Source: Dictyostelium discoideum
Taxonomy: Eukaryota
Length of the DNA: 64,000 bases
NCBI GenBank assembly: GCA_000004695.1
Contig: CM000152.2
Span: 4,032,001 to 4,096,000, forward strand
Direction: 5' to 3'
The notes under the pieces are model-generated. The model was not told the origin of the DNA. It ran no database searches and worked only from the letters and a program-made list of their open reading frames with translations. The position numbers and the translations under genes are program-made. Numbering within the stretch: the stretch's first letter is position 1; each line of letters begins with the position of its first letter. Shown here one piece after another: positions 2,404 through 64,000 of the stretch.

Positions 2404-2766
2404 TTATTTTTCAATTGGTTTTTCATCATCTATTTTGTTTAAAAGATTAATAATTTCAATTCTAAACAATAATTGTTCATTGATTGATTTTTCCAATTTG
2501 AAAATTTTTTGTCCACAACGATTGCAAACTCTAATTTTATTATTTTCAATTACACTCCATCTCCAATATGGAGTATTATTAGTTAAACAAATTTGACAAC
2601 ATAATGGCTTTGGTTTTGGTGGTCTTCCTCTTTTTGGTTTTTCATCAATACTAAACATATGATTATGTGATAAATTTGTCATTGGTTGTGGTAATGGTGA
2701 TGTTTTTAATTTTTTAGCTCCACAATTTTTTCTTGGATTTGAACATTTTGTTTTTTGTTCAATCAT
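2404..2766 (-). CDS. Small GATA-type zinc-finger protein (120 aa) with a basic AT-hook-like KRGRPPKPKP segment
   Basis: The ORF has a true ATG at 2764-2766 (minus strand). The motif CQICLTNNTPYWRWSVIENNKIRVCNRCG resembles the GATA finger (C-x2-C...TP.WR...C-x2-C). The inter-cysteine spacing of 20 residues is longer than the canonical 17-18. Confidence 0.55.
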   Translation of the reverse strand: MIEQKTKCSNPRKNCGAKKLKTSPLPQPMTNLSHNHMFSIDEKPKRGRPPKPKPLCCQICLTNNTPYWRWSVIENNKIRVCNRCGQKIFKLEKSINEQLLFRIEIINLLNKIDDEKPIEK

Positions 2767-2857
2767 TTTCCTTTTTTTACTTGAATCCTATTTATTATTA
2801 ATTATTGATAAAAAAAAAAAAAAAAATTAATTTCAATTTTATTACTTTAAAAAAAAA

Positions 2858-2889
<32 letters not shown>

Positions 2890-3803
2890 TAAATAATTAC
2901 ACATGAATTTGAATTTGATAAAAATTTTAAATTGGTAATCATTTTATCTATAAAAATTTCAGCATTTTTAGCAACTCTATGATCCTCCTCTGACAATAAA
3001 AGGATATTTGGAGGTTCATTTAAATTTGAAACTTGATCAAAAACAAGGATATTATTATTCTTTTTTTTAAAAAAAATAAATATTAAATTAATATTCAAAA
3101 ATTTAGTTAAAAATAAAAATAAAAATAAAAATAAAGATTTATTTTTTAAAATTGTAAATATTAAAATAAAAAAATAAAAAAAAATAAAAAAAATTAAAAA
3201 TAAAATATAAAAATAGAAAAAAAAAAAAAAATTAAAATAATTAATATTTTGTAATTAAATAAATTAATTTTTAGATTAAATTAAAAGTAAAAAAAAAAAA
3301 TCTAGCCAAATTATTACCATTTGATTATAAATGTAAATTTGATTTATTTTTTATTTTTTTAAAAAAAAAATATATATATATATATATAATTGTAAATGTA
3401 ATTTTTATTTTCAATTTTTTGAATTGGTAATTTTTTAAGAATATTTTTCAATTGTTTGATGTTGAATTTATAAACACAAAAAAAAAAAAAAAAAATAATA
3501 AAAAGAAAAAATTAAATTAAAAAAAAATAAAAAATAAAAAAAAATTAAATTTTTTCCATTTGTTGATATGATTTAAAAAATTAATATAAAAAAAAAAAAA
3601 CTTACAACCAATAATTATTCCTTTTTTTTTCAAAAAAAAAATTAAATTTAATTTTTTTTTTTTTTTTTTTTTTATTGTTTGTGTTTTTTTAAGAAATGAA
3701 TTCATTTCTATCTAGATTGACCAAAAATAAACTTAATTTTATAAATTTTGCGGTTAAATCAATGGAAAATTGAATAAATGTAGGGGTATAATTGATTATA
3801 TTA

Positions 3804-3836
<33 letters not shown>

Positions 3837-4568
3837 CAATTTTTTGAAAGGCTTGTTTGTGGGCCTTTAAAATTTTTTAAAGGCCCACAACCACTGTACA
3901 GTCAGCAAATTGTGTGTGGGGATTTTTTAATTTCTTTGTCCCATTTGTACTTATAATTCCATATTTTATTGGAAATTTTTTAAAGTATTTTTATTTTTTT
4001 GTTTTTTTTATATCCATAATAAAAAAACACCAAATCTAACTTTTTTTATATAAATTTAGAATAATTAAATTAAAAAAATTATTTTTTTGCTTGATTAAAT
4101 CTAACAAAATGTTCCATATTTACTCTCTATCATACACAAAGCAAATAAACAAAAACACACACACACACAATTTTTTTTTAAGGTTGGCTATAAAAAATAT
4201 AAATAGATAAACCTATTCTTTGAATGTTTTTTAAATATTTAAAAAATTAAAATAAATATAAATTAATACATTAAAAAAAAAAAAGAATAAAATAAAAAAG
4301 CTAATAATAATATTTTTTTATTAACTCCTTTTTTCATTTTCATAAATATTTTTTTTTTTTTTTTTTTAAAGATCTGTTTCTTAAAATATTAAGACATGTG
4401 TTTAAAATTGTATATTTTTTTTTTTTTTTATTAAAAAAAAAAAGTTTTTTTTTCTGTGAAATAATTATTTATAAACCATTGTGGAAGTGATGGGTTTATT
4501 ATATTTTATTTTTTTTTTTATATTTTTTTTTTTTTTTTTTTTTTAATAAAGTTAAATTGATATTGTGT

Positions 4569-14833: not shown

Positions 14834-18127
<3,294 letters not shown>

Positions 18128-22497: not shown

Positions 22498-25419
22498 TTA
22501 TTTATTTTTATTTATTTTTATTTTATTTATTAGATGAATTATTTTTGATTTTAAAACTTTTTCATTTTTTGGTGAAAAATCAATAAAATCAATTAGTAAA
22601 TTTGATAGTTGAAAATTTGAAGAATCTATTGAATTTACAACGATATCATGTAGTAATTTCGATTGGAATAATGATGATTGATTTGTTTTTGTTCTCACTT
22701 TTAATAAATATTGACTATTTTGATTAGATGATAGAATGTTTTTGAAAATTTGAGTGAATCCTTTTTTAGATGCTACACAAAGACAAGTATAAAGATGATT
22801 GATTGTATTATCATTTAAATTTTCAATAAAATAATTAATAAATAATTCAAGATAATAACTTGAACATATATTATATAAATAAGATTCTTTAGTAAAATTT
22901 ATGAAATATCCTGAATTAAAAATTTCAGGTATTTTATCAAAAAGATAAAAAATATCATCAACCCTATCTAAATAATAAAGACAAACAAATAAAATTCTAG
23001 GTGAAATTATAAAATCAAATGATTCTGTTTTACCAATAATAAATTGTCCAACTTCTTCACTATTTGTTGTTGTTGTTGTTGTTGTTGTTGTTGGTAAATG
23101 AGTAAATGTTGAGGTGAGTTGAATAGAATTATCACCGTAATATCCATGAGAATAATTGAAATTACCTTTAACTTGATATAACTTTGATTCAATTGATTCT
23201 TTTGAAATATTATTAAAAATCAATTTAACAAGGTTTGGTATCTTATTTAATGGTTCACCACTTATAATTAGAGAAAATCTAAATGGTTGTTTAAATTGTT
23301 GATTTGATAAAAAGTAATTGATTAAAACTTCATTACCATTTTCTAAAGACCAACCAAATATTTTTATCAAAAAATTATAACTATAATTAGTATTAAAAAA
23401 AAAAGAATAAAATAAAGGTTTTGAAATTGCTCTTTTTAGTAGATCCAAAAATATATTTATATTATTTTTTTCATTATTTTCATCATTTCTGAACCAATTA
23501 TAATAATATATTAAACATAATCTTAACCTTCTACCAATACTCTCCATTATTTTTTCATAATGATCAATAATATTAATATTATTCCAATTTTGATTGTAGT
23601 CATCGAATAAAGTAGTTTCATTTCTATAATTTTCAAAAAAAAGGTCAATTATTTCATTTTTATTAATATATCGAAAATTGGTTGATATAATTTCAGAGAT
23701 TCTTGGGAATTGTGTTTTTGAATATTTAACAAGTTGTAATTTTTGCATTGTTTTAAATAGATGGTCAATTAATTCTGTATCGTTAATTGAAAATACAACT
23801 TTACAAAATGAATTAAAACTTTCAATATTATATCCATACCCGTTCTTTTGAAATGAAATTCCATTTTAAATATCCAAAATATTTGATACTAATTCTAATC
23901 TTTGATTTTTTTCAAGATTTTGATCCACTAAAATACCTTTAAAAAATATTAAATAATCATTATTCTTTTTATGAAAGTTACAAAATATTTCATATAATTG
24001 ACTAACACCCTTTTCTTTTTTAAAATATAAATAATAATGAATTGGTTTCATTAAATTTCCATTACAAAGATTTCCAACTCTAATAATTTTAAAAAATAAA
24101 TAAATTGATTTATAATATTTTTTAATAATATCTTTTATATCACCGCTATTATTATTGTTTGTTATTAATATTGGAGTGTTGGTAGTAGTATTAGTGGTGG
24201 TGGTAGTGGTAGTGGTGGTGGTTGTTTGATTTAATAGATTTTTAATTGTTGAATTTAATTGATCATTTGTAAAATGACTTAGTTCAATTTCATTTAATTC
24301 CAATGTTAATTGATTTAATTTTTCAATGTGTTCTTTTTTATTTGAGTGTAGATTCAATTTTTGTTCTTGTTGTTCTTGTTTATGTTGTTGTAGTTGTTTT
24401 TGATGTATTTCTTGTATTTCTTTTAAGTTTGTAGGATCGACTAATAATTTATATGATTTTATAAGTCTTTTAAATTTATAATCAAATGATAGACTATCTG
24501 ATAAATCAATATTAGAAAATCGTTGTTTAATATGTGATGTTGGAATAGCATTAATTGATTTTAAATAATTGTAAATCTTTAAATTATTATATGTAACTAC
24601 ATTAAAGAATGATGGATTAATATGCATTTCTATACTTTTTTTTAAAACATCTGAATTTATTTTAAAAAATTTAATAAATTGATCTAATGCTACTAAATTT
24701 TCATTTAAAATCATTCTTTGAATCCATAGATCAATATTTTCATCAAATTGAAAAAGTAATGATTTTATTGGTTGTATGATTGTTGTTGTTGAGTTGGATA
24801 TTGATGATGAATATGCTGAGAATAATGTAGTATAAAATGAAATTGTTTCATTATCTTTTTTTTTTAATGTTTTAATAATATTTACAATATCATTTGTATT
24901 TCTAATTATTTGATGATTAATATTTCCTTTAATATTATCTTTTATTATTTCTAATGAATTACTATAACTTTTTAAAAAGTTTTCATTTATACCAATTAAA
25001 TCATGATAACCAAATTGTTTACTTTTAAAATTTGAAAATATATTTTTAAATATTATCATATTTCTAAAAGCTTTCCAAAAATAAATTTCAAGTTGATCAA
25101 CATCTTTAATTAGTAATACATATTGTTTTTGTTGAGGTTGTTGTTGAGGTTGTTGTTAAGGTTGATTGGTTGTACTATTTGTTAAATCATTTTTAAATTT
25201 TTTTGATAAAAAATAACCTTCAACTCTTTTATAAATTTCTTGTTTTTTCCCAATAATTGGTAAACCTAATGAGTTTGCAATTGTTTGTAATTCTTTGCTT
25301 CTTATTGAATCATAATTAATATCTTCTTTAAACTTTTTGTATGTTAATAAACCATCATTATCATCATCATTATCATTTTCTTGATTTTCAATCTCTTTTC
25401 TTTTATTATTATTAACCAT
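22498..25419 (-). pseudogene. SAP-domain family copy 3, disrupted by in-frame stop codons
   Basis: The unit is collinear with copies 1 and 2 and starts at ATG 25417-25419. Its reading frame is split into three ORFs (25156-25518, 23866-25059, 22498-23748). A TAA (plus TTA at about 25167-25169) replaces a copy-2 GAA in the QQ-rich linker. A second TAA (plus TTA around 23870-23878) lies at the position that reads GGAACTCCATTTTCAATATC in copy 2. Confidence 0.6.
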
Positions 25420-39576: not shown

Positions 39577-41057
39577 TTACTTTATCCATTCTTCTTTAAT
39601 TGATTTTAATTGAATATTTTCTAAAGTTATTGTACAATATTGTTTATAAATTGATTCGATTGCAATACCTAAAGTTGAAGGGAATTTTGAACCTGAACAA
39701 GTGATTTCAATGGTTGATCTATTTGGATGATCAATATCATCGGGTTCTTTTGATAGATCATAATAGTCTATATCAACAATACAACAAATATCCTTATCAA
39801 TATGTAATGGTATAACAGCGGATGTATTCAAACCTAGAATATTACATTCCCACAACTCTTTGAAAGTATTTGAAAAGTTACATACATTAACACACTCCTT
39901 TGGTAGTATCTCCTTTACAACTGATACCATTGATGTCACCAATCTTTCATTTTGACCTCTAATAATAACTTGATTACCAATGATTATATTATAAACTAAT
40001 ATTGAAAACGCATCTTCACCCATTATCCTATTAACTTGACTTAACGATAATATCAATTCCTCTTGTCTTGGAAAAAAGCTATTCTCTAATAATATAATAT
40101 TACTATCATTTAACATATTTAAATTTAAACTAAATCCACTTATATTACTATTATTATTATTATTATTGTTTGATTGATTATTATTATTATTTGATTTTTT
40201 AATATTATTATTATTATTATTATTATTATCAAAATTATTTAAATTTTTTAAATTATCTTTAAAATATTGAATTATTTCATATTGTTCTGATAATAATGAT
40301 TGATTTCCTTTTAAAAGGTGATATTTGAATTGACAATTTGAGAGAATACTACAAAAACTTTTATGTAATCTTGTAAAGAATAATGGATCTTCGATTAATT
40401 CAGAGAGTAGTTTTAAGGGTACAGATCTAGTGCCCCTTCTATAGATATTTGAAATCATTGAACTATTATGAGACTGTTGTGATTTTTCACGTTCAAATAC
40501 AACGTTTGTTTTCCTTTTCATCTCTTCCGCTAATGATTTGAAACAGTCGATTAACCAACTATAATAATTGACTAAACAGGATGGATCCTTAAGTAGACAT
40601 AGAAATCCATACCATCTTGCGCTACCCCTTGCACGACTATCATTGATTTTAAACATATACGATAACCAATGACCATCGCCACTACTAATTAAAACGGGTC
40701 CTTCTCTACCCACTACTGCTTCACAACTTAAACTTCTAACACATGCATTTCTAATAACACTATAATAACTTTGATTCGATGTTTGATGTGTACTAACATA
40801 ATAAACATTCTTATTACTATTATCTTGTGATACTAATGCATTACCTAATGGTATTGATGAACATGTTGGACAATTTGGTTTAGTTGTTGTCGTCGTCGTA
40901 GTGGTAGTAGTAGTATTAGATGATTCATTATTCCTATTTGATAATAATACTGAATATGTTTTAAATTCTTCATCTTCATTATTATTATTATATTTTGAAA
41001 ATAAATTAGGTAATGATACTGGTGATATATCAATTGGTGGTTGTGGTGGTTGGTCTA

Positions 41058-41118
<61 letters not shown>

Positions 41119-41379
41119 GATTTCTAAAATTCTTTCAGTATGTGTTGTAAATACAACGGATGGTCCATGTGTTTCACAAAAATGTGTAAGAACAATTGAT
41201 GCTGGCATCATGTTACCATTGATTGATGTTGTACTTGTATGATTTTCATTTGATTTTAATATTGATGGTGATGATGATATTGTCGAATTTAATTTACTAC
41301 TTGATGACGATACAAAATCATTATCATCATCATTTTCAATTGAATCTGAGCAATATGATGGTATTTTTACTTTAATCAT
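39577..41379 (-). CDS. Folliculin (FLCN/BHD) homologue with N-terminal longin-like region, Cys/His zinc cluster and C-terminal DENN-like region; 600 aa
   Basis: A single ORF. THFCETHGPSVVFTTH matches the folliculin N-terminus (CHFCELHGPRTLFCTE). [74 protein letters not shown] aligns with human FLCN ([72 protein letters not shown]). Asn and Thr homopolymer inserts are present. Confidence 0.8.
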
Positions 41380-42834: not shown

Positions 42835-45522
<2,688 letters not shown>

Positions 45523-46244
45523 TTTAATTTTAATTTTTTTTTTTTTTTTGGTTGTGATTAAAAAAAAAAAAAAAAAAAAAAAATGGTCAGTAAAAAAAAA
45601 AAAAAAAAAATGACCAGTAAAAAATTTCAAATAAAACCCAGAAATTAATTCAAATAATTGAATACTTTGTTAATTAAATTTTAATTTAAAAATAAAAAGT
45701 CTGATAATTAAAAAAAAAGAAATTTAAATAATAAAAAAAAAAAAAAAGTTTGGTAAATTTTTTTATAAAAATAAATACTAGTAATATAATATATTTATAT
45801 ATTATTTATTTAATCGAACGATCGTACCCCAAAAAAAAAAAAAAAAAAAAAAAAAAAATGAAAAAAAAAATAGTTTAAAATGGTGCCATTATAAAAATAA
45901 TTTTTACATATAATAATCAAACACATTCAATGAAATTTCCAATTTTTTTTAAAAATAAAAAAAATAAAAAAAAAAAAAAAAAAAAAAAATTAAAAAAACA
46001 AAATTTGTCATATTCCGGAACTATTAATATCTTTTATTTTTTTTTATTTTTTTTTCTGACTAACAATACCAGAACACATAAAGAATTAATGAATTCTTGA
46101 ATAAAAAAAAATGGTTTTTTTATAAAAGACTCATTTTAATTTTAATTTTTTTTTCATTCATTTTAAAATAATAAAAAACAAATATAAAAACAAATAAAAA
46201 AACAAATATAAAAATAAATATAAAAACAAATAAAAACAAATAAA

Positions 46245-47564: not shown

Positions 47565-48314
47565 TTAAAATGGTAAGTTACCAAGAACTTTTGGTAATTG
47601 GACTGATGATTTTAATTTTAATTGTTTAGAATTTGGTTGATTTAAACAAATACTTGGTAATTGGAAGTATGCTGAGTCAGCAGATGGATTGTAATAGTAA
47701 TAGTTTGTTAATGTATATCCACTTGGTGTATTGTTGATATTTTCGGTTGAGCCAGAGATTAATGAACAATCTGATTTATCTACAAGGAGACCGACATTTG
47801 AAGAGTTACCTAAATCACCTGGATTTACTGAAAACATATCACATTGAACAGTACCTAATTCGAAATCACCAACATACTTTAATCCTTCAAGTGATGGAGT
47901 AGAGTATGATAATGGTTGTTGGAAACAATAATCAGTACCATTTACATTAACACTAACGTATTGTGTACTATTACTACCGAAACCCCAGAGATTACCTTTT
48001 GTTTTTGTATTACCATTATCGAATAAAAAGTCAACATACAATTGTTCACCAGCCAAATCAATATTCATAAAACCAGATTCAAGGAAAGATGATTGTTGGA
48101 TACCACTTGGAGTTGGATAATTTCCATTAAAACTTAACATAACATAAGAACTTGAATAACCTGTTGGAAGTTGGCCACTTGAAGTAAAACATTGTTGTTG
48201 ACCTACTTGATTTTCAATTTTTGAGTAATCAATTTTATTTGTACCCATACTAAATGATTTACAACAATTTAATGCAACTGTCATTACTAAAATTAAAGAT
48301 AATAATAATTTCAT
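47565..48314 (-). CDS. Secreted Cys-containing protein of unknown function, array copy A (249 aa)
   Basis: An intronless ORF with a signal peptide MKLLLSLILVMTVALNCC, several N-x-S/T sequons and six Cys in the mature part. It is 95-99% identical to copies at 50329-51078 and 53896-54645 and about 85% identical to 56225-56974. Confidence 0.6.
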   Translation of the reverse strand: MKLLLSLILVMTVALNCCKSFSMGTNKIDYSKIENQVGQQQCFTSSGQLPTGYSSSYVMLSFNGNYPTPSGIQQSSFLESGFMNIDLAGEQLYVDFLFDNGNTKTKGNLWGFGSNSTQYVSVNVNGTDYCFQQPLSYSTPSLEGLKYVGDFELGTVQCDMFSVNPGDLGNSSNVGLLVDKSDCSLISGSTENINNTPSGYTLTNYYYYNPSADSAYFQLPSICLNQPNSKQLKLKSSVQLPKVLGNLPF

Positions 48315-49405
48315 TCTTTAATTTTTTTATTTATTTATTTTATTTAATTTTTAAAATTTTTTATTTGTTTTATTTATTTATTTTAAATTATTTGTTTAAT
48401 AAAAAAAAAAAAAAAAAAAAATTATTTATACTAATTTTTTTTTATGGGTATCCGATAATATTTTAAAAAATATATTCGAAAATATTTACCTATAAATTAT
48501 CCTGGAAAATGATATATTTTATTGCCTGGTCATGATGTCAAGAGGACTTGCAAAAATTGATTTATTTGAATTATCTCATTTATTTACAAAATATCGGATC
48601 AAAAGTTTTTTCGAAAATTTAAATAAAAACCGTAATAGAATTATTTTTATATATCAAAGGAATATTTTTATGGTAAATAAAAAAAATTAAAAAGGAATGT
48701 CAGAGAACCTATCTCAGAAAAATGATTTTTTTATTTGGATATTTTATAAAAAAAAAAAAATATCTCAAAATATTTTTTTAAAAAAAAAACCCAGGCAGTG
48801 ATATCATAATCTTAACAAAAGATTGTTAGCCTGGTACTAAATTTATTGAAAAATAAATAAATAAAAAAAAATAGAATTTTAAATGTTTACAATTATTTAT
48901 TTGTAGTTCGAGAAAAAAAAAAAAAAAAAAAAATTAATTTAAATCATCAAAAAGTGTTTGTAACTCTAAAAAAATAATTAAATAAAAATAAATAAAGTAA
49001 AATATAAAAAAAATAAAAAAAAAATTAAAACACCTTCCAAAAAAATTAAAGTTAAAACACCTTCAGTTAATTAATTTTAATAATAATAATTAAAAAAAAA
49101 AAAAAGACGAAAAAGACAAAAAAAAAAAAAAAAAAAAAAATGAAAACATTTGGGTAAAAAAAAAAATATCCCAAAAATAAATTGGAATTCTGGAATAAGA
49201 TTTTTTTTTATTTTTTATTTTTTATTTTTTTTATTTTTTTTTATAATTAGCAATACCAGAACGTACAGGGAATTCATGAATAAGATAATGATTTTTTATA
49301 AAGACTCATTTTTATTTTTTTTATTCATTTTAAAAAAAAAATAAAAAAAAACAAAACAAATATAAACAAATATAAAACTAATAAAAATAACTAATATTAA
49401 ATAAA

Positions 49406-49981
49406 ATGTCAAGCATTTCAAGAAAAGTTTAAAATGTTGCAAAAGGTTATAAAACTAAAGATGGCGCAGGTGTATCACTTTTACGTGTTATTGGTGGACC
49501 TATCCCATCAAAATCAGTTGATCCATTCTTAATGTTAGATGCATTTAAATCAGAGAATCCAAATGATTATATTGCAGGTTTCCCATCACATCCACATAGA
49601 GGTCAACAAACTTTAACCTATATGATAGATGGTATAATGGAGCACAAAGATAACAAAGGAAATAAAGGATTACTAAAACCTGGTATGGTTCAAGTTATGA
49701 ATGCTGCAAGAGGTGAAGGTAAATTCGGTCCAGAAGGTTATGAAAAAGTTGTAGCTGATCAACATATTGGTGTTTTAGAGAATAAAGATAGGGTCACAAT
49801 TAATGATAATGAAATTACACCAAATAAATTAGATGGAATCGCAGGTGAAAATGGTGTTAGATTCCTCTTTTTATCAGCAAAACCATTACGTGAACCAATC
49901 GTTCAACATGGTCCATTCGTTATGAATACACAAAAAGAAATTCAACAAGCTTTTTTTGACTACGAAATGGGTAGATTTTAA
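49406..49981 (+). pseudogene. Pirin pseudogene (array unit 2): early nonsense codon plus internal deletion
   Basis: ATG at 49406. Codon 9 is TAA (AAAGTTTAAAATG here, against AAAGTTTCAAATG in copy 1). The exon-1 end is fused directly to the middle of exon 2 (…NAARG|EGKFGPEGYEK…). This removes the intron and about 115 codons, including the MPKQVEG..FWLNL cupin segment. Confidence 0.65.
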
Positions 49982-50328
49982 TTAATCACCTTTTTTATAA
50001 AAAAAAAAATAATAATAATAAAGATTAAAAAAAAAAATTGTATTATAATTAATGTAATATGGTTATTAGATTATTAACCACCCAATCAAACAGACATTAT
50101 ACTGTCGAATTAAAAAATTATAAAAATAAAAATAATAAAATAAAATAAATAAAATCTTTTAAATTCAATGAAATTAAAACATAAAAAGCAATAATATGAT
50201 TGTTATATTTTTGTATATATGGTTATTAAAAAAAAAGTTTTATATTTTTATTTTAATATTGTTTTTTATGTTTAAAAAAAAAAGTTAAGTGAATCTTTTT
50301 TTGATCGATCGAGAAAAAAAAAATTTAA

Positions 50329-51078
50329 TTAAAATGGTAAGTTACCAAGAACTTTTGGTAATTGGACTGATGATTTTAATTTTAATTGTTTTGAATTTGG
50401 TGGATTTAAACAAATACTTGGTAATTGGAAGTATGCTGAATCTGCAGATGGATTGTAATAGTAATAGTTTGTTAATGTATATCCACTTGGTGTATTGTTG
50501 ATATTTTCGGTTGAGCCAGAGATTAATGAACAATCTGATTTATCTACAAGGAGACCGACATTTGAAGAGTTACCTAAATCACCTGGATTTACTGAAAACA
50601 TATCACATTGAACAGTACCTAATTCGAAATCACCGACATACTTTAATACTTCAAGTGATGGAGTAGAGTATGATAATGGTTGTTGGAAACAATAATCAGT
50701 ACCATTTACATTAACACTAACGTATTGTGTACTATTACTACCGAAACCCCAGAGATTACCTTTTGTTTTTGTATTACCATTATCGAATAAAAAGTCAACA
50801 TACAATTGTCCACCGGCCAAATCGATATTCATAAAACCAGATTCAAGGAAAGATGATTGTTGAATACCACTTGGAGTTGGATAATTTCCATTAAAACTTA
50901 ACATAACATATGAACTTGAATAACCTGTTGGGAGTTGGCCACTTGAAGTAAAACATTGTTGTTGACCTACTTGATTTTCAATTTTTGAGTAATCAATTTT
51001 ATTTGTACCCATACTAAATGATTTACAACAATTTAATGCAATTGTCATTACTAAAATTAAAGAAAATAATAATTTCAT
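50329..51078 (-). CDS. Secreted Cys-containing protein, array copy B (249 aa)
   Basis: An intact paralogue of 47565-48314, with a few substitutions. Confidence 0.6.
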   Translation of the reverse strand: MKLLFSLILVMTIALNCCKSFSMGTNKIDYSKIENQVGQQQCFTSSGQLPTGYSSSYVMLSFNGNYPTPSGIQQSSFLESGFMNIDLAGGQLYVDFLFDNGNTKTKGNLWGFGSNSTQYVSVNVNGTDYCFQQPLSYSTPSLEVLKYVGDFELGTVQCDMFSVNPGDLGNSSNVGLLVDKSDCSLISGSTENINNTPSGYTLTNYYYYNPSADSAYFQLPSICLNPPNSKQLKLKSSVQLPKVLGNLPF

Positions 51079-51975
51079 TTTTTTTTTTTTTTTTTTATTT
51101 ATTAATTTTTATTACTTTAAATTTGTTTATTTTAAATTATATAATTAAAAAAAAAAAAAAGAAAAAAATTATTTATACTAATTTTTTTTATAATTATCCT
51201 ATAACATTTTAAAAAATAAATTCAAAAATATTAACCAATAAATTATCCTGGAAAATAATATTTTTTGGCCTGGTTATGATGTAAATTGAAGTTTCTAAAA
51301 TTGATTTATTTGAATTATCTCATTTATTTAAAAATGTCGGACTCAAATTTTCCCAAATTAAATAAAAAACCGTAAATTATTTTTTTTTATTAAAGAATTT
51401 TTTTAGGGTAATTAAAAAGATTAAAATAGAAGGTCAGAGAATCTATCTCAGAAAAATAATCTCGATAAAAGAGTGTTGACCTGGTATTAAATTAATTTTA
51501 ATAATTAAAAAAAAAAAAAAAAAACAGAATTACAAATGATTTTTTATTTTTAGTGATTTATTCCTAATTTTAGTTTTTGCGGTAAAAAAAAAAAAATTAA
51601 TTTAAATTATCACCTGAAAAAAATTAAAATAAAATATAAAAAAATATAAAAATTAAAAATAAAGATAAAACCCCTTATGTTTTTATTCAAACTAATAATA
51701 GATTAAAAAAAAAAAAAAAATTATAACATCCAAACCAACATAAAAATAAATTGAAATTCTGTATCAAGATTTTTTTTTTTTTTTTTTAATTTTTTATTTT
51801 TTTTTTATTTTTTTTTTTTTTTATGATTAGCAATACCAGAATGTACAGAGAATTCTTGAATAAGAAAATGATTTTTTATAAAGACTCATTTTAATTTTTT
51901 TTTTTTCATTTTAAAAAAAATAATAATAAAAACAAAACAAATATAAAACAAATAAACTAACTAATATTAAATAAA

Positions 51976-52613
51976 ATGTCGAGTGTTTCAAGAAAAGTTT
52001 CAAACGTCGCTAATGGTTATAAAACTAAAGATGGTGCAGGTGTATCACTATTACGTGTTATTGGTGAACCTATCCATCAAAATCAGTGGATCCATTCTTA
52101 ATGTTAGATGCATTTAAATCAGAGAATCTAAATGATTATATTGCAGGTTTCCCATCACATCCACATAGAGGTCAACAAACTTTAATCTATATGATTGATG
52201 GTATAATGGAACACAAGATAACAAAGGAAATAAAGGATTACTAAAACCTGGTATGGTTCAAGTTATGAATGCTGCAAGAGGGTATGTTTTAATTATTATT
52301 AAAAAATATAAAAAAAAAAAAAAATAAAATAAAATAAATCTAATAAATACTAATAATAATTCAAAATAAAAATATATAGTATTATTCATTCAGAAATGCC
52401 AAAACAAGTTGAAGGTAAAATGTTTGGATCAATTTTGGTTAAATTTAGCAGCAGTCGATAAAATGTTAGATCCATGGTTGAAAATGGCGTTAGATTCTTA
52501 TTTTTATCAGCAAAACTATTACATGAACCTATTGTTCAACATGGTCCATTCGTTATGAATACACAAAAAGAAATTCAACAAGCTTTTTATGATTACCAAA
52601 TGAGTAGATTTTA
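51976..52613 (+). pseudogene. Pirin pseudogene (array unit 3): frameshifts and large deletions
   Basis: ATG at 51976. There are single-base deletions relative to copy 1 (CCTATCCATCAAAATCAGTGGATCC; CACAAGATAAC). A large deletion joins …AAVDKM(L)DPW directly to ENGVRFLFLSAK. Confidence 0.65.
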
Positions 52614-53049
52614 ATTAATCACCTTTTTTATAAAAAAAAAAAAAATAAATAAATAAAAAAAAAAAAAAAATAAGAAACATAAAAAAAAAAAAATGGTAAT
52701 TATATTATAGTTAAAAAATTAAAAAAAAAATATAGTAACAAAATATTAGTTTAAAAAAAAAAAAAGTTTTGTTTATTTCTTTGTTTGAAATTTGGTTTAA
52801 TATTATTTTCCAAATATTTTTGACAAATAAAAAAAATAAAAGGTAATAGATATTTTTTGGAATCTATATTTATGTATGTTTTTTTAGTTTTTAGAAAAAT
52901 AAGATACATTTTATTTATTGATAATATATTGAATACTAATTTTTCGTGTGTATTAATATTAAATTATATTAAAATAAAAATTTTAAATCATTAAAAAAAA
53001 GTGAAAAAAGATAATACAAAAACAGAAACCCTAAGATTTAATTGTTTTG

Positions 53050-53754
53050 GGTATATAGTCTGGTGAATCAGGATTTAAAAATAAATCAATCTCAGAAATA
53101 GTTAAAGAAATTTATGAAAATATCGATGGAATGACAATGAGTGGTAAAAAAGATGGAAATTCAAACATTGGTGGTTTCATTGCAACAAGACATAAGGAAT
53201 GGTATGATAAAGCAAGTATTGTTAATATCATTTATGAAGGATATGTAACATATGGTGGTATGACAGGTAGAGATATGGGTGCAATGGCTCAAGGTTTAAA
53301 TGAATCAATGGATTTTGAATATTTAAAATCAAGATGTAAACAAGTTGAATATCTTGCAAATAAACTTGATAAATATGGTGTTCCATTTCAAAGACCATTT
53401 GGAGAACATGCGTTATTCATTGATGCAAAGAAAATACTTGGTCATATTCCAATTGATGATTTAATTGCTCAAACATTAGCTATTGAAATTTATTTAGAAG
53501 GAGGTGTAGGAAGTGTTGAAATTGGCACCCTTTTAGCCGATAGAGATCCAATTACTCAAGAAAACTGATATCCTCAATTAGAGTTTGTAAGACTAGCAAT
53601 TCCAAGAAGATCATATACAAATAATCATATGAAAGTAGTAGCTGTAACACTTAAAAATGTTTATGATAAAAGATTAAAAGTTAAAAGTGGTTATAAAATT
53701 ATTCATGAAGCACCAATTCTCAGACATTTTACTGTTGAATTAGAAAAGTTATAA
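53050..53754 (+). pseudogene. Relic C-terminal fragment of a tryptophanase / tyrosine phenol-lyase family (beta-eliminating lyase) gene, with an internal TGA
   Basis: The translation GESGFKNKSISEIVKEIYENIDGMTMSGKKDGNSNIGGFIATRHKEW...[166 protein letters not shown] is collinear with the C-terminal about 230 aa of bacterial TnaA (…AMSAKKDAMVPMGG...[21 protein letters not shown]...QYL...[50 protein letters not shown]...LLRLTIPRATYTQTHMDFI...YEPKVLRHFTAKL). The PLP-lysine (SAKKD, compare SGKKD) is retained. An in-frame TGA (53566-53568) is AGA in the unit-4 copy. The fragment begins at an intron-acceptor-like tatatag with no upstream exons found. Confidence 0.6.
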
Positions 53755-53895
53755 ATAAAAAATTTATCAAATAAAATAAATAAATAAAATCTATGAAATT
53801 AAAACATATCTATGATTTTTTATAATTATTTTTTTATTTTATTTTAATTAATATGTCTTTTTTTTTTTTTCAATTTGAAAAAAAAAAAAAAAAAA

Positions 53896-54645
53896 TTAAA
53901 AAGGTAAGTTTCCAAGAACTTTTGGTAATTGGACTGATGATTTTAATTTTAATTGTTTAGAATTTGGTGGATTTAAACAAATACTTGGTAATTGGAAGTA
54001 TGCTGAATCAGCATATGGATTGTAATAGTAATAGTTTGTTAGTGTATATCCACTTGGTGTATTGTTGATATTTTCAGTTGAGCCAGAGATTAATGAACAA
54101 TCTGATTTATCTACAAGGAGACCGACATTTGAAGAGTTACCTAAATCACCTGGATTTACTGAAAACATATCACATTGAACAGTACCTAATTCGAAATCAC
54201 CAACATACTTTAATCCTTCAAGTGATGGAGTAGAGTATGATAATGGTTGTTGGAAACAATAATCAGTACCATTTACATTAACACTAACGTATTGTGTACT
54301 ATTACTACCGAAACCCCAGAGATTACCTTTTGTTTTTGTATTACCATTATCGAATAAAAAGTCAACATACAATTGTTGACCAACCAAATCGATATTCATA
54401 AAACCAGATTCAAGGAAAGATGATTGTTGAATACCACTTGGAGTTGGATAATTTCCATTAAAACTTAACATAACATATGAACTTGAATAACCTGTTGGGA
54501 GTTGGCCACTTGAAGTAAAACATTGTTGTTGACCTACTTGATTTTCAATTTTTGAGTAATCAATTTTATTTGTACCCATACTAAATGATTTACAACAATT
54601 TAATGCAATTGTCATTACTAAAATTAAAGAAAATAATAATTTCAT
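53896..54645 (-). CDS. Secreted Cys-containing protein, array copy C (249 aa)
   Basis: An intact paralogue. Confidence 0.6.
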   Translation of the reverse strand: MKLLFSLILVMTIALNCCKSFSMGTNKIDYSKIENQVGQQQCFTSSGQLPTGYSSSYVMLSFNGNYPTPSGIQQSSFLESGFMNIDLVGQQLYVDFLFDNGNTKTKGNLWGFGSNSTQYVSVNVNGTDYCFQQPLSYSTPSLEGLKYVGDFELGTVQCDMFSVNPGDLGNSSNVGLLVDKSDCSLISGSTENINNTPSGYTLTNYYYYNPYADSAYFQLPSICLNPPNSKQLKLKSSVQLPKVLGNLPF

Positions 54646-54676
54646 TTTTTATTTTTTTATTTATTTATTTATTTTT

Positions 54677-54723
<47 letters not shown>

Positions 54724-55323
54724 TTAATTTATTTATTTATTTAATTATTTATTTATTTATTTTAAATTATTAAAATTATAAAAAAAAAAAAAAAAAAAAA
54801 TTATTTATACTTTTTTTTTTTTTAAGTATCCGATAATATTTTAAAAAATAAATTCAAAAATATTAAGCAATTGATTATCCTGAAAATATTTTTTTTGCCT
54901 GGTTATGATGTCATGTGGTTTCAAAAATTGATTTATTTGAAATATCATATTTATTTATGAAATTTCAAATTTTCTAGAGAAATTAAAAAAAAAACCGTAA
55001 AGTATTTATTTTTTTTTCTTATTAGACGAATATTTTTATAGTAAATAAAAAAAAGATTAAAAAAGAATGTTAAAGAATCTCAGAAAAAACATTTTTTTAT
55101 TTGGATATTTTTTAAAAATAATATCTGAAAATATTTTTAAAAAAAAAAAAACCCAGGCAGTGATATCATAATCTCAATAAAAGATTGTTAACCTGGTACT
55201 AAATTTATTTTTATTTTATTAAATTTTTTATTTTATAATAAAAAATAAAAAAAATAGGATTTTAAATGGTTTTTGTTATTGTTATTTTAGTGGTTTATTT
55301 GTAATTTGAGTTTTTGAGGGGAT

Positions 55324-55362
<39 letters not shown>

Positions 55363-55716
55363 ATCACAAAGTGAGTAATCCAAACTCTGAAAAATAAAAT
55401 GAATATAAAAAAAAATAAAAAATTAAAGATAAAACCCCACAGGTCAAAAAAAAAAAAAAAGAAAATATTTAAATAAATATAAAAATTAAGGGTGGTTGGA
55501 TGTAAAAATTTCAGCATTAAAGTGGTGAAAAGTAATTTTGTGGGTTTGTCGCCTTTTTATTTTTTTATTTTATATGCGACTTAATAAAAATAAAAAATGA
55601 AATTTAAAATGATTTGTTTTTATTTTTTTTATTTTTTTTATTTTTTTTTTTTTTTTAATTTTTAATTTTTAATTTTTTATTTTTTTAATTTTTTTTTTTA
55701 TAATTAGCAATACCAG

Positions 55717-56069
55717 TTGGAGAACATGCGTTATTCATTGATGCAAAGAAAATACTTGGTCATATTCCAATTGATGATTTAATTGCTCAAACATTAGCTA
55801 TTGAAATTTATTTAGAAGGAGGTGTAAGAGGTGTTGAAATAGGTACCCTTTTAGCTGATAGAGATCCAATTACTCACGAAAATAGATATCCTCAATTAGA
55901 GTTTGTAAGACTAGCAATTCCAAGAAGATCATATACAAATAATCATATGAAAGCCGTAGCTGTAACACTTAAAAATGTATATGATAAAAGATTTGAAATT
56001 AAAAGTGGTTATAAAATTATTCATGAAGCACCAATTCTAAGACATTTTATGTTGAATTAGAAAAGTTAT
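55717..56069 (+). pseudogene. Shorter relic of the same tryptophanase-like gene (array unit 4), fused directly to the conserved pirin-upstream block
   Basis: The junction reads TAATTAGCAATACCAG|TTGGAGAACATGCG. The fragment encodes [112 protein letters not shown]. It has no start codon and no pirin. Confidence 0.55.
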
Positions 56070-56224
56070 AACTAATAATAAAATAAAATAAAAAACAAAA
56101 GAAAATAAAATTAAACTAAATCAATGAAATTAAAATATGAATAAGATTGTTTTTTATTTTATTTTAATATTAATTAATTTGAGAATCTTTTTTTTTTTTT
56201 CAATTTAAAAAAAAAAAAAATTAA

Positions 56225-56974
56225 TTAAAATGGTAAGTTTCCAAGAACTTTTGGTAATTGGACTGATGATTTTAATTTTAATTGTTTAGAATTTGGTGGA
56301 TTTAAACAAATACTTGGTAATTGGAAGTATGCTGAATCAGCAGATGGGTTGTAATAGTAATAGTTTGTTAATGAATATCCACTTGGTGTGTTGTTAATAT
56401 TTTCAGTTGAAGCAGAGATTAATGAACAATCTGATTTATCTACAAGGAGGACAAGATTTGTAGAGTTAGCTAAACTACTTGGACTACCTGCAAACATATC
56501 ACATTGAACAGTACCTAATTCGAAATCAGTAATATAGTTTAATCCTTCGATTGCTGGAACTGAGTATGATAATGGTTGTTGGAAACAATAATCAGTACCA
56601 TTTACATTAACACTAACGTATTGTGTACTATTACTACCGAAACCCCAGAGATTACCTTTTGTTTTTGTATTACCATTATCGAATAAAAAGTCAACATACA
56701 ATTGTTGACCAACCAAATCGATATTCATAAAACCAGATTCAAGGAAAGATGATTGTTGAATACCACTTGGAGTTGGATGGTTTCCATTAAAACTTATCAT
56801 AACATAAGAACTTGAATAACCTGTTGGGAGTTGGCCACTTGAAGTAAAACATTGTTGTTGACCTACTTGATTTTCAATTTTTGAGTAATCAATTTTATTT
56901 GTACCCATATTAAATGATTTACAACAATTTAATGCAATTGTCATTACTAAAATTAAAGAAAATAATAATTTCAT
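56225..56974 (-). CDS. Secreted Cys-containing protein, array copy D (249 aa), the most divergent copy
   Basis: The ORF is intact and the signal peptide conserved. There are about 30 amino-acid substitutions clustered around positions 140-200. Confidence 0.6.
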   Translation of the reverse strand: MKLLFSLILVMTIALNCCKSFNMGTNKIDYSKIENQVGQQQCFTSSGQLPTGYSSSYVMISFNGNHPTPSGIQQSSFLESGFMNIDLVGQQLYVDFLFDNGNTKTKGNLWGFGSNSTQYVSVNVNGTDYCFQQPLSYSVPAIEGLNYITDFELGTVQCDMFAGSPSSLANSTNLVLLVDKSDCSLISASTENINNTPSGYSLTNYYYYNPSADSAYFQLPSICLNPPNSKQLKLKSSVQLPKVLGNLPF

Positions 56975-59324: not shown

Positions 59325-61522
<2,198 letters not shown>

Positions 61523-61646: not shown

Positions 61647-62262
61647 TTATTGTTTTAAAACTTCACAATACGAAATTGAATGTTTAGAGTGAAAGTAACC
61701 TGCGGCACTGGTGAAACCAAAATATGCTTTTTTTAAACCAACTAAATCAGGAACATGAATATTATTTAATAATTGAACGGAATCAACTGAAATTGATAAA
61801 CTTGTTTCATTATGATTAAAACTAATTTCTACATTATGTTGGAATCCATCTTTCATTGAAAATGATGGTACTGCTGAAGCTATGGAAAATTGATTTGATG
61901 ATGAAAGATTTCCTCTTTTGTTGTTGGTACCTTGAATTGAAATATGATTATCATTTTGTTCATCTTCATTTCTATATGTGTCAAATTCAACTGCAACACA
62001 TCCATCACCTTTTGCAATATCATGATATCCAAGTGTTGTACCACCAGAATAACGAGTTGAACATTGTGTATCACTTATACTTTGAATTACAAATGCAAAT
62101 CCATCTGCACCTACATTATCTCCTTGTGGTTTTGATATTTTGAATGTAAATTTAATCAATAAATCTGAATCCATTGGTAATTTAATTTTTGAAAATACTG
62201 ATCCAACTTGATTATGACTATCATTTGTTAAAACAAATTTATTTGATATAATTTCTTTTTCT

Positions 62263-62335
<73 letters not shown>

Positions 62336-62606
62336 CATTATTATTATTATTTAAAGATAAATGTTGTAATGATGGATTAACTCTCATTTTATTTCTTCTA
62401 TAAGGTGAAGGTTTGTCTTGTTTAAATTCTTTTTGAATTTTATGACCTTCGTCATCTTCAAAGAATGCATCTACATTGGTACTACTATTTTTATTATTAA
62501 ATACAAAAAATGAATTATCTATTTTATTTTTTAAGAAAACATTTCTATATACTTTAAAGAATAAATCTTGACTATTATCTTTATTACTGTTGTTATTGTC
62601 GGACAT
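61647..62606 (-). CDS. L-type (legume-like, concanavalin-A fold) lectin-domain protein, copy 1; no signal peptide
   Basis: A 319-aa ORF. Lectin_legB-like motifs are GADGFAFVIQ (ADGLAFFL), GGTTLGY (GGYLGL), VAVEFDTYRNEDEQNDNHISIQ (VAVEFDTF.N..WDP...HIGIDVNS), VEISFNHNETSLSISV and AYFGFTSAAG...HSISYCEV (VRVGFSAATG...HDVLSWSF). A coding (AAT)n poly-Asn tract lies at 62265-62345. The N-terminus DLFFKVYRNVFLKNKI has no hydrophobic signal sequence. Confidence 0.7.
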
Positions 62607-62897
62607 TGTGTTAATTTAAAAAGAGAATAAAAAATGAAAAAAAAAAATTTAATTATAAAAAAATAAAAGATTTCATGAAAAATTTAATTATAAAAAAAAA
62701 AAAGAAAATAATAAAAAAAATTTAATTCCCTAAATTTCCAAGATTTTAATTTTTTTTTTTTTTATTTTTTTTTTCTTTTTTTATATTTTTATTTTTAATT
62801 TTTAATTTTTATTTTTAATTTTTATTTTTATTTTTTTTATTTTTATTTTTTTTATTTTTATTTAATTTTTATTTTTATTTTTTATTTTTATTTTTTA

Positions 62898-64000
62898 TTA
62901 TTCTTGTTTAAAAACCTCACAAATTAAAATTGAATGTTTTGAATAACTTGAACCAGTGGAAGCAGTGAAACCAATATATGCTTGTTTTAAACCAATTAAA
63001 TCTGGAACATGGGTATCATTTATTAATTTTACAGAATCAAGGGTAACAGATAAAGTTGTATTCTTTTGATTAAATTGAATATCAACCTTATGTGCTAATC
63101 CATCTTTCATTGTAAATGATGGATCAGCACAAGCCAAAGAGTATCTATGAAAAGATGAAAGTGTTCTATTTTCTTCACATTTTTGAATTGAAATATGGTT
63201 ATTATTTGGATCACCAAGATTATTTTCATCATTCTTATGAGTATCGAATTCGATTGCAACTGCACCATCCTTCTTAGGAATAGTACTATACCCAATACTT
63301 CCACCACAACCACCAATTGCATCATTGGAATTACTTTGAATTACAAATGCAAATCCATCAGCACCTGTATTACTTGTTTTTGAAATTTGAAATTCAAATT
63401 TAATTAATAAATTAGTTTCCAATGATAATTTAACCACTGAAAATACCGATCCAACTTTTAAAGCAACTTCATCAGTTAATACAAATTTAGTAGATTCATT
63501 AGCTTCATTATTAATTATTTTCTTACCATCCCTATCTTCAAAAAATGCATCACCATTTACTTTAGTATTTTTAATATTAAATAAAAATGGTTTTGGTAAA
63601 ACTTTAAATGAAGATTTTATTCTAATTCTGTCAATGAAAAAGTCTAAAAATACATTTGATTTTTCTATCATTTTTTTTTGAAGTTCATCATCAGCATTAT
63701 TGTTTGCAGTATTTACACCAAGTAATTTTATTATTCCTGGAGTATCAACTTCATCAGATTCTTTAAATTTATTTAATGAATGTTGTGACCTAGGTATAAA
63801 TAATTTAAATTAGTTTTTAAAAAGAATATTTATATAATTAATAATAATTAATAATTACCATGGATTATCCATAAAAAATGCAGGTTTTTCTTTTATACTA
63901 TTATTTGTTTCATTTCTAATTTGAGTTGCTAAATTTTGATCATTACAAAATGGAATTATTGTTGAAAAGCAATCAATTGATTCATTTGGTAGAATTGATA
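62898..64000 (-). CDS. L-type lectin-domain protein, copy 2 (tandem paralogue); multi-exon, 5' exons run past the window end
   Basis: The lectin exon is 62898-63789. It has the same motifs as copy 1: ADGFAFVIQSNS, GGSIGY, AVAIEFDTHKNDENNLGDPNNNHISIQ and AYIGFTASTG. An acceptor cctag at 63790-91 precedes SQHSLNKFKESDEVDTPGIIKLLGVNTANNNADDELQKKMIEKSN. A further upstream exon (…DQNLATQIRNETNNSIKEKPAFFMDNPW, then GTAATT at about 63856) continues beyond 64000. The gene is therefore partial. Confidence 0.65.

Follow-up and report, generated by a model that had tools for sequence, protein, structure and literature searches.

Genes and gene models at the end of the window

The window analyzed here, a 64,000-nucleotide stretch of chromosome 3 of Dictyostelium discoideum AX4, carries near its end two adjacent genes, both on the minus strand, that encode lectin domains. 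Neighboring genes, through exact matches to AX4 proteins, identify this source. Open reading frames on that strand cover 61647..62606 for the first gene (copy 1, 319 aa) and 62898..63671 for the second (copy 2), the latter extending in frame upstream; an in-frame Met lies at 63671, within the last exon of copy 2. The initial annotation held that copy 2 has further 5′ exons outside the window, which proved correct: an intron (63790..63858) separates the last exon from exon 6, which runs to the window end at 64000, and the start codon lies 2445 bp past that end. The copy 2 gene model was rebuilt on L001, a sequence 99.99% identical to the window end (window position = 66975 - L001 position), and the resulting seven-exon model gives 994 aa, the annotated product length. 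The spacer between the two genes holds no minus-strand ORF of at least 20 aa, and so is without minus-strand coding potential. The features of the locus are as follows.

61647..62606, minus strand: copy 1, single-exon gene for a stand-alone L-type lectin of 319 aa (ORF, Pfam, AF2/Foldseek, orthologs, dN/dS)
62520..62564, minus strand: copy 1 aa 15-29, LFFKVYRNVFLKNKI, basic amphipathic N-terminal helix motif (AF2 helix 12-26, pLDDT ~50)
62439..62516, minus strand: copy 1 aa 31-56, SFFVFNNKNSSTNVDAFFEDDEGHKI, where the lectin fold opens with its first beta-strands (AF2)
62247..62438, minus strand: copy 1 aa 57-120, disordered Asn-rich insertion within the lectin fold (AF2, TRF)
61650..62246, minus strand: copy 1 aa 121-319, lectin core (Pfam envelope, alignments to 7ELV and the Bowringia lectin 2FMD)
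61647..61649, minus strand: copy 1 stop codon
62607..62897, no strand: A/T-rich intergenic spacer, 291 bp, from the copy 2 stop to the copy 1 start (sequence)
62898..63789, minus strand: copy 2 exon 7, the last, with the end of the GTPase-family module, the lectin domain and the stop codon (rebuilt gene model)
62901..63587, minus strand: copy 2 lectin domain, aa 766-994 (Pfam, alignment to 2FMD and 1N3O)
63790..63858, minus strand: copy 2 intron 6, 69 nt, GTAATT...CCTAG (GT..AG)
63859..64000, minus strand: copy 2, 3′ portion of exon 6 (aa about 651-698), coding for a C-terminal stretch of the GTPase domain
Window-equivalent 64001..66445, minus strand: the rest of copy 2, exons 1-5 plus the larger part of exon 6, with the MACPF-like, MORN and P-loop regions (L001)

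Copy 1 is a stand-alone L-type lectin

That both genes encode real L-type lectin domains, as had been proposed from short motifs (all of which were found in the sequence), was borne out by Pfam: both passed the threshold of PF18483 (Lectin_L-type_dom), and copy 2 also passed those of PF00139 and PF03388. Copy 1 scored 81.7 bits against PF18483 (cut-off 78.3), with an envelope at aa 121-312, and had no match to PF03388 in the same search. Its AF2 model has a mean pLDDT of 81, rising above 90 in the lectin core, and among solved structures searched with Foldseek it matched the legume-lectin domain of M. jannaschii (7ELV; E 1e-12, TM 0.75 normalised by target), as well as pea lectin and ERGIC-53.

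The first strands of the fold (33-35, 41-45 and 48-50) are predicted at pLDDT 85-95 and are followed by the Asn-rich insertion, where pLDDT falls below 50 over residues 68-92. Part of this insertion is encoded by a repeat tract at 62265..62351, identified by TRF as (ATT)29 on the plus strand with a 97% match; it reads (AAT)29 in the coding direction, so that the coding tract noted earlier is present, with about 29 units instead of the 27 reported. The insertion occupies the same position in copy 1 orthologs, where its sequence is variable.

Residues corresponding to the canonical lectin site of copy 1 are D168 (in GADGFAFVIQ), E207, D209, N213 and H221, all within the lectin core. The second metal-binding Asp is ambiguous (D215 or D219), the loop being shorter. 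Orthologs from D. firmibasis (P0001) and D. citrinum (P0002) start at the same Met, and dN/dS against D. firmibasis is 0.20; with omega well below 1, copy 1 is under selective constraint.

The N-terminal motif of copy 1

Copy 1 begins with a motif that had been described as common to unrelated gene families of the window. Sharing was found, but the plural was too generous: apart from copy 1, a single gene of the window has a FFKVYRNVFLKNKI-like motif, namely the one holding ORF 42835..45630 (tblastn E 0.01), whose real N-terminus is MNNYKNNNGNGEILFWSIWRNIFLKRIIL and in which the motif lies equally far from the initiator Met. The helix motif of copy 1 is conserved in P0001-P0003. A 46-aa profile of the motif returned only 11 candidates and nothing useful. 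Many Dictyostelium FNIP-repeat proteins probably start with a FFKVYRNVFLKNKI-like motif; the FNIP-repeat literature we searched makes no mention of one.

One reading of the motif is that copy 1 could be an F-box-like adaptor, a sugar-recognizing ubiquitin-ligase subunit comparable to Fbs1/FBXO2, in which the FFKVYRN helix would contact Skp1. By eye, DLFFKVYRNV is presumably similar to helix 1 of the F-box consensus, and a comparable motif begins an unrelated protein in the window. An F-box, however, comprises about 45 residues in three helices, and the lectin fold starts its first strand roughly 16 residues after the polar N-terminus, too few for these; the helix is itself predicted at low confidence (pLDDT ~50), and three motif-bearing N-termini had no match to the Pfam F-box or F-box-like models (PF00646, PF12937) at E values up to 10. 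We consider the adaptor role highly improbable, and the lack of a Pfam match and the shortage of space ahead of the lectin fold led us to reject it as the main reading of FFKVYRNVFLKNKI.

Copy 2 is predicted to combine MACPF-like, GTPase and lectin domains

A reading of the locus as two tandem lectin proteins is not supported for copy 2, a 994-aa protein with the lectin at its C-terminus and, very probably, a multidomain architecture. Its parts, in order, are a MACPF/CDC-fold region (about aa 1-260), a helical stalk (265-340), a MORN repeat (about 404-425), a P-loop GTPase (about 520-700), a conserved linker helix, and the lectin (766-994). Exon 7 encodes aa 698-765 (with FFIDRIRIKSSFK among them), where the GTPase-family module ends, and also the lectin. 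For the two genes, orthologs of unchanged architecture were found in several strains of D. discoideum as well as in D. citrinum and D. firmibasis.

The lectin part scored 99.8-103.8 bits against PF18483, 70.9 bits against PF00139 (Lectin_legB; cut-off 26.3) and 25.7 bits against PF03388 (cut-off 24), and it aligns to 2FMD and 1N3O over VEFDT..N..GDPN..HIGI. Its key residues are D842, E878, D880, N884, D891 and H896. The residue check thus gave the same answer for both genes: the canonical metal and sugar residues are conserved in copy 1 and copy 2, and across 45 homologs there is almost no change at the Asp that binds sugar, at the Glu and Asp that ligate the metal, or at the Asn and His. The metal loop varies, the D. 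firmibasis copy 2 being without the GDP segment, and because the loops of orthologs differ, sugar binding may not be uniform. For the lectin part of copy 2, dN/dS is 0.47.

In the predicted structure, the N-terminal 260 residues form a bent central beta-sheet with two helical clusters (TMH1, TMH2), which is the MACPF/CDC fold. The model is moderately confident (pLDDT 68, pTM 0.61, with residues 1-35 and 64-92 below 50). The Pfam MACPF model did not match the 994-aa protein even at E values up to 10, whereas it matched 9 of 69 profile-linked relatives (best E 8.8e-13), and a further relative, P0158, scored 20.7 bits against a cut-off of 21.5. The MACPF signature Y/W-G-T/S-H-F/Y-x6-G-G is represented in copy 2 by YGLYYISKIEYGA, which fits Y-G-x-x-Y-x6-G-A: the spacing fits, and the His and the second Gly are changed. 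The consensus of the wider family is YGTxFIxxIxYG.

The GTPase region matched MMR_HSR1 in Pfam at 25.7 bits (cut-off 21.9), with Dynamin_N under its cut-off. The P-loop (G1, GLIGSGKTT, aa 529-537) and the G3 motif (DTPG, 596-599) are both invariant in the family alignment, and FCND in exon 6, read by eye, is a candidate G4. A profile of the family weakly matched septin Cdc3 (E 5.5e-4) and Toc GTPases. Four relatives matched AIG1 (best E 4e-49), a Pfam model to which copy 2 itself had no match, and the domain searched as a single sequence gave nothing meaningful in PDB or NCBIfam. These similarities weakly suggest a septin/Toc/AIG1-like GTPase, which would be a very divergent one.

Signal peptides and cellular location

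Signal peptides were assessed with a hydropathy heuristic, the maximum over 10 residues. Copy 1 reached 0.74 and copy 2 1.79, compared with 2.8 for the ependymin-like secreted proteins that the window also encodes and 2.9-3.3 for lectin homologs from bacteria. Copy 1 is without a classical signal peptide. The earlier statement that both proteins lack one is therefore clearly upheld for copy 1, while the value for copy 2 is borderline and no signal peptide was shown. The moderately hydrophobic N-terminus of copy 2 (MSLVLPIPAGV) is the conserved start of the MACPF-like domain, with its P and G positions kept even in distant relatives. No upstream exon was found that would supply a signal peptide to either gene: the gap before copy 1 is free of ORFs and its orthologs begin at the same Met, and the complete N-terminus of copy 2 was recovered. 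In both proteins the lectin domain forms the C-terminal end; no hydrophobic tail or transmembrane anchor comes after it. Members of a third Dictyostelium group (P0004-P0006) carry a Lys/Arg-rich N-terminus before the same lectin domain that resembles a nuclear localization signal.

Comparison with known systems

With legume lectins (7ELV being the nearest solved structure, then pea and peanut lectins) the two copies share the fold, the sugar-binding Asp of GADG, and the E-x-D...N...H metal motif. They differ in that no signal peptide was found, in the disordered Asn-rich loop of ~60 residues inside the fold of copy 1, and in the position of the copy 2 lectin as the C-terminal module of a large, presumably cytoplasmic protein. 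The fold is also that of ERGIC-53 and VIP36 (Foldseek E about 1e-11 for the copy 1 model), but sequence membership in PF03388 is marginal (25.7 bits for copy 2, no match for copy 1), and those proteins have a signal peptide and a C-terminal transmembrane anchor and keep their lectin domain in the lumen, none of which was found here. The initial annotation set the two proteins apart from the luminal or secreted L-type lectins of eukaryotes. This is less surprising than was stated, because the domains belong to the PF18483 branch rather than to the ERGIC-53/VIP36 branch, and PF18483 is elsewhere fused to PNGase-type transglutaminase domains, in the PNGase-like proteins of Mucoromycota (PF03835 + PF01841 + PF18483). 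PNGases are cytosolic enzymes, and these fungal proteins are another eukaryotic use of PF18483 outside the secretory L-type families; their partner domain is a deglycosylating enzyme, and they are not the sister group in our tree.

The predicted N-terminal fold of copy 2 is shared with MACPF/CDC proteins (stonustoxin, perforin-2/MPEG-1, TgPLP1, pleurotolysin B, GNIP1Aa and the cholesterol-dependent cytolysins). Stonustoxin likewise has its pore-forming domain first and its binding domain last, the order in copy 2, where pore formation is a prediction; copy 2 differs from these pore formers in placing a GTPase and a MORN repeat between the two. With the septin, Toc and AIG1 (GIMAP) GTPases it shares the P-loop, DTPG, and family-profile matches, but it is very divergent and is fused to MACPF-like and lectin domains. 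Dictyostelium discoidins, galectins and fungal fruiting-body lectins are cytoplasmic lectins without signal peptides that act in defense or damage sensing; their folds are unrelated. Literature searches on the two genes, on Dictyostelium L-type lectins, and on MACPF + AIG1/GIMAP architectures returned nothing relevant, and the MACPF-like/GTPase/lectin fusion is undescribed in the literature searched.

Proposed function

As copy 2 is a 994-aa multidomain protein, its lectin is better read as the targeting module of a pore-forming/GTPase effector than as a free cytosolic lectin. Taken as a whole, our reading is that these are paralogous tandem lectin-domain genes without signal peptides, of which copy 2 is multidomain and probably a defense or prey-killing effector (probability about 0.55). 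The narrower proposal that copy 2 is a cytoplasmically made, glycan-targeted, pore-forming defense effector has, in our estimation, slightly less than an even chance. Its lectin would direct the protein to a glycan-bearing target, either a bacterial surface or the luminal glycans of a damaged phagosome or vacuole; the GTPase would control assembly; and the MACPF-like domain would insert into the target membrane. Copy 2 would act in this way as a defense or prey-killing effector, and copy 1, born of the same domain lineage, may be a soluble partner, a competitor or an independent cytosolic lectin. A point against an effector is that a cytosolic lectin would meet glycans only once a membrane is damaged, bacteria escape or cell contents are released.

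A bolder version, which we regard as rather unlikely, makes copy 2 a cell-autonomous immune executioner. The lectin would sense bacterial glycans, or host glycans on ruptured vacuoles, a septin/GIMAP-like GTPase would drive assembly there, and the perforin-like domain would perforate the bacterial or vacuolar membrane, with copy 1 tuning or competing with the process. If true, one polypeptide would join jobs that in mammals are split among galectins, GBP-type GTPases, and perforin-2 or gasdermins. Work on how phagocytes and bacteria interact has in Dictyostelium one of its leading models, and copy 2 gives experimenters a concrete amoeban candidate for glycan-guided killing, or for the sensing of damage; since its function is inferred, the present value of these findings is as a generator of hypotheses.

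The closest competitor to the effector reading is that the proteins could be stored toxins against predators or competitors, held in the cytoplasm and acting after the amoeba or fruiting body is eaten or lysed, or released by unconventional secretion. Cytoplasmic lectins of fungal fruiting bodies, pleurotolysin, and stonustoxin, which has no signal peptide, work in this mode, but a regulatory GTPase and a MORN repeat would be atypical of it, and we judge it a minority possibility. The initial annotation favored plain soluble lectins, cytosolic or nuclear, that bind intracellular glycans. Copy 1 suits such a role, being a 319-aa protein under purifying selection with intact lectin residues and no signal peptide, and the nuclear-localization-like N-termini of P0004-P0006 point the same way; for both genes together it is nonetheless improbable, as the MACPF-like and GTPase domains ahead of the lectin in the 994-aa copy 2 argue against it.

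Use of the fold for something other than sugar binding, such as protein binding or oligomerization, also seems improbable to us. The loop past the Ca/sugar-binding Asn does vary in length among copy 1, copy 2 and their orthologs, and copy 1 is without the GDP motif, but both copies keep the sugar-binding Asp, the Glu/Asp metal ligands, and the Asn and His, positions that scarcely vary across the 45 homologs. That the genes are functionless, as decaying duplicates or annotation artifacts, is very unlikely: the exact AX4 sequences were absent from the protein collection searched, as were several other ORFs of the window, and the copy 2 lectin part evolves faster (omega 0.47), while the ORFs are intact, the architecture recurs in orthologs, and copy 1 has an omega well below 1.

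Family relationships and evolution

The scaffold of copy 2 belongs to an amoebozoan family, found in Dictyostelia and Pelomyxa, with varied C-terminal binding modules. Relatives carry Ricin_B, H_lectin, Jacalin or VOMI modules at this position, and WSC and C1q domains also occur among them; paralogs have other C-termini, or none. DDB_G0280583 is one of the paralogs. The L-type lectin fold, mostly tied to the secretory pathway in eukaryotes, appears here to serve a cytosolic scaffold as a targeting module that can be exchanged for others. The best non-dictyostelid matches to the lectin domain, at up to 41% identity, were associated with T9SS or CHU_C sorting domains. A neighbor-joining tree did not settle the sister group of the lectin domain, giving 4% support to the one candidate tried, and we make no claim of a bacterial origin by horizontal transfer. 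Signs of gene conversion between neighbors were also seen; together with the varied C-terminal modules, they make up a pattern seen in arms-race genes.

Lectin domains and gene structure

The two minus-strand open reading frames reported in the initial annotation were found in place, one encoding a 319-aa protein (copy 1) and the other the end of a 994-aa protein (copy 2). As anticipated, copy 2 has exons beyond the window, which holds only the following parts of it, placed by a gene model on a locus from a second D. discoideum assembly (L001).

61647..62606, minus strand, copy 1
62898..63789, minus strand, copy 2 exon 7
63790..63858, minus strand, copy 2 intron 6
63859..64000, minus strand, 3' end of copy 2 exon 6

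L001 matches the final 11 kb of the window at 99.99% identity (a window position equals 66975 minus the L001 position). On it the copy 2 gene is annotated at 530..4077, its product being 994 aa long, and exactly one model of that length was found, with seven exons, GTA..AG introns and frames kept open. Several open reading frames of the window, which has a G+C content of 15-29% and long coding (AAT)n tracts, are identical to the AX4 proteins DDB_G0281303, pseudouridine synthase XP_640817, and DDB_G0281117/DDB_G0281121, which places the window on chromosome 3 of AX4.

Pfam confirmed lectin domains in both proteins: PF18483 (Lectin_L-type_dom) scored 81.7 bits in copy 1 (cut-off 78.3) and 103.8 bits in the lectin part of copy 2, where PF00139 (Lectin_legB, 70.9) and PF03388 (25.7) also matched; in the full 994-aa protein the Pfam match to the lectin covers residues 792-985. 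Among solved structures, the legume-lectin domain of Methanocaldococcus jannaschii is nearest in sequence (7ELV, E about 1e-14), with classical legume lectins coming next. The GADGFAFVIQ segment aligns with the A-D-G sugar-binding Asp of solved lectins, and VEFDT..N..(GDP)..NHISI with the Glu/Asp/Asn/Asp/His metal and sugar motif of the Bowringia and Pterocarpus lectins. Copy 2 retains the full set (D842, E878, D880, N884, D891, H896); copy 1 retains D168, E207, D209, N213 and H221, but its second Asp is ambiguous because the loop is shorter. Both domains may bind sugars.

An AlphaFold2 model of copy 1 (45 homologues; mean pLDDT 81, lectin core >90) can be superposed on 7ELV, on pea lectin and on ERGIC-53. 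Residues 31-56 (SFFVFNNKNSSTNVDAFFEDDEGHKI, pLDDT 85-95) are predicted to form the initial strands of the fold, so the domain is longer than its Pfam envelope (121-312). A disordered insertion within the fold, which contains the poly-Asn run, is modeled at residues 57-120; orthologues from D. firmibasis and D. citrinum have an insertion at the equivalent place, with a different sequence. The coding AAT tract noted earlier is present, with 29 units rather than 27 ((ATT)29, 97% match, 62265..62351).

Neither protein had been thought to carry a signal peptide. By a crude hydropathy heuristic (maximum 10-residue Kyte-Doolittle mean, with internal controls), copy 1 is clearly negative (0.74) and lacks a classical leader, whereas copy 2 is borderline (1.79); the controls gave 2.8 for secreted ependymin-like proteins of the window and 2.9-3.3 for bacterial lectin homologues. 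An upstream leader exon for copy 1 is very unlikely, because the 291-bp A/T-rich spacer upstream has no minus-strand open reading frame of at least 20 aa and the orthologues share its start Met. The start of copy 2 (MSLVLPIPAG.NTLLITENDLGRGF) is highly conserved among paralogues, with Pro and Gly positions kept in distant relatives, a pattern to be expected of a stretch with a structural role in the domain rather than of a cleaved leader.

The N-terminal motif of copy 1 (FFKVYRNVFLKNKI) is conserved among small lectin orthologues and is predicted, with low confidence, as one helix (12-26) directly adjoining the first strand. It had been described as shared with unrelated gene families of the window; we found it in one other gene, 42835..45630 (EILFWSIWRNIFLKRIIL), and no further one, lying 12-14 residues past the Met in both. 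That minus-strand gene encodes about 895 aa (real Met near 45522; motif-bearing N-terminus MNNYKNNNGNGEILFWSIWRNIFLKRIIL) with no Pfam match. One guess would be an amphipathic helix that binds a membrane or a partner.

The copy 2 scaffold

The locus is of interest chiefly for copy 2, the greater part of which lay outside the view of the initial annotation. Pfam found no match in residues 1-390, a single MORN repeat at 404-425, and a P-loop GTPase at 526-646 (MMR_HSR1, 25.7 bits against 21.9; Dynamin_N under threshold). Residues 1-758 retrieved 20 dictyostelid paralogues and orthologues with the same scaffold, including DDB_G0280583 and DICPUDRAFT_98949. The GTPase P-loop (GLIGSGKTT) and DTPG are invariant throughout this family, whose profile matched septin Cdc3 (E 5.5e-4) and also Toc GTPases in the PDB; AIG1 matched in four relatives (best E 4e-49). 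Assignment to the septin/Toc/AIG1 class seems reasonable, if weak.

An AlphaFold2 model of residues 1-352 (17 sequences; pLDDT 68, pTM 0.61) has two very long strands (101-118, 144-163), helical clusters at 64-92 and 166-194, and a long helical hairpin at 265-338. A profile of this domain found 156 relatives in 1.84 billion representatives; Pfam MACPF matched 9 of the 69 scanned (best E 8.8e-13), and the copy 2 segment YGLYYISKIEYGA is spaced like the MACPF signature (family consensus YGTxFIxxIxYG). From the model and this independent sequence evidence we conclude that the predicted fold is MACPF/CDC; the domain may form pores.

The family is modular. Named relatives come from D. purpureum, Cavenderia fasciculata, Synstelium polycarpum and Pelomyxa schiedti, and the remainder are environmental sequences. 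Copy 2 orthologues end in the lectin, which in copy 2 is joined on directly behind SSFK, inside the last exon. Other paralogues end in a Cys-rich module or a second MORN-like segment with a coiled coil, lack any extension and stop directly after ...FFIDRIKLKSSFKP, or are truncated after the MORN region. Domains present in farther relatives are Ricin-B, H-type lectin, jacalin, WSC, C1q or VOMI. The lectin of copy 2 thus belongs to a set of binding modules that can replace one another.

Evolution of the lectin domains

A neighbour-joining tree built from 40 domains unites all Dictyostelium lectin domains in one clade (94%); support for the tandem cluster on chromosome 3 is 100%. The syntenic D. 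firmibasis site (L002, 11386..16494) holds three tandem lectin genes, encoding a 291-aa FFKVFRN-plus-lectin protein (P0003), a 1004-aa copy 2 orthologue and a 327-aa copy 1 orthologue; no P0003 equivalent was seen adjoining copy 2 in D. discoideum. In D. firmibasis, the copy 2 lectin shares 71% identity with the copy 1 orthologue beside it, against 61% with D. discoideum copy 2, and the tree places it in the copy 1 clade (80% bootstrap). This pattern suggests that gene conversion has occurred between these neighbours.

In the search with the lectin domain, dictyostelid matches were limited to D. discoideum, D. citrinum and D. firmibasis, and the scaffold members recovered from D. purpureum and other more distant dictyostelids had no lectin domain. 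In the best matches outside dictyostelids (up to 41% identity), bacterial sorting domains of the T9SS or CHU_C type are present. The tree gave no clear sister group for the Dictyostelium domains, and horizontal transfer is therefore not claimed. A third Dictyostelium group of L-type lectins (P0004-P0006; D. citrinum, D. discoideum; other chromosomes) also has no signal peptide; its Lys/Arg-rich N-terminus (MIGGEKRKRIEL...KRNVKKEK) resembles a nuclear localisation signal and precedes a Thr-rich linker. Mucoromycota PNGase-type proteins (P0036, P0042, P0054, P0066) combine Rad4/transglutaminase domains (PF03835, PF01841) with PF18483, which possibly replaces the mannose-binding PAW domain of animal PNGases.

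Proposed function

In the best-supported reading, the copy 2 lectin would bind a glycan on its presumed biological target, the GTPase would regulate assembly, and the MACPF-like domain would perforate the target membrane; copy 1 would be a free lectin of the same lineage. The main rival, that these are stored toxins against predators or competitors, freed on lysis or ingestion, differs only in the place of action. Stonustoxin, pleurotolysin and fungal cytoplasmic lectins offer a comparison for it, and lectins without signal peptides are common in Dictyostelium and fungi.

Other explanations are less likely. A non-lectin use of the fold would have to accommodate the retained metal and sugar residues. 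For copy 1 as an F-box adaptor, with the N-terminal motif read as an F-box, Pfam gave no F-box match, and there is no space for one. As to both genes being pseudogenes, copy 1 has a dN/dS of 0.20 against D. firmibasis and is thus under purifying selection. Literature searches found nothing on either gene or on an architecture of MACPF, septin/AIG1-like GTPase and lectin; every domain family here is already known.

Neighbouring genes

Convergent with copy 1, at 60407..61522 on the plus strand, lies the final exon of a RabGAP-TBC protein, with a coding (TAA/AAT)47 tract (60868..61007) and a C-terminal hydrophobic segment (LVLIMATLLLTSVVLLIVIITSTL) resembling a tail anchor. At 47565..56974 (L001 10001..19405), four tandem 249-aa genes with clear signal peptides match Ependymin_amoebozoa (PF25544) and alternate with fragments that match Pirin and Beta_elim_lyase; DNA identity among the repeat units is 81-97%, indicating recent segmental amplification. 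Two adjacent SAP-domain paralogues on the minus strand (14834..18127, 1097 aa; 19226..22087, 953 aa) are followed by minus-strand frames of 416 aa (22498..23748) and 397 aa (23866..25059) that have no Pfam match and share short segments with them, and thus represent another local duplication. A clear folliculin homologue lies at 39577..41379 on the minus strand (Folliculin, E 1e-44; Folliculin_C, E 4e-64).
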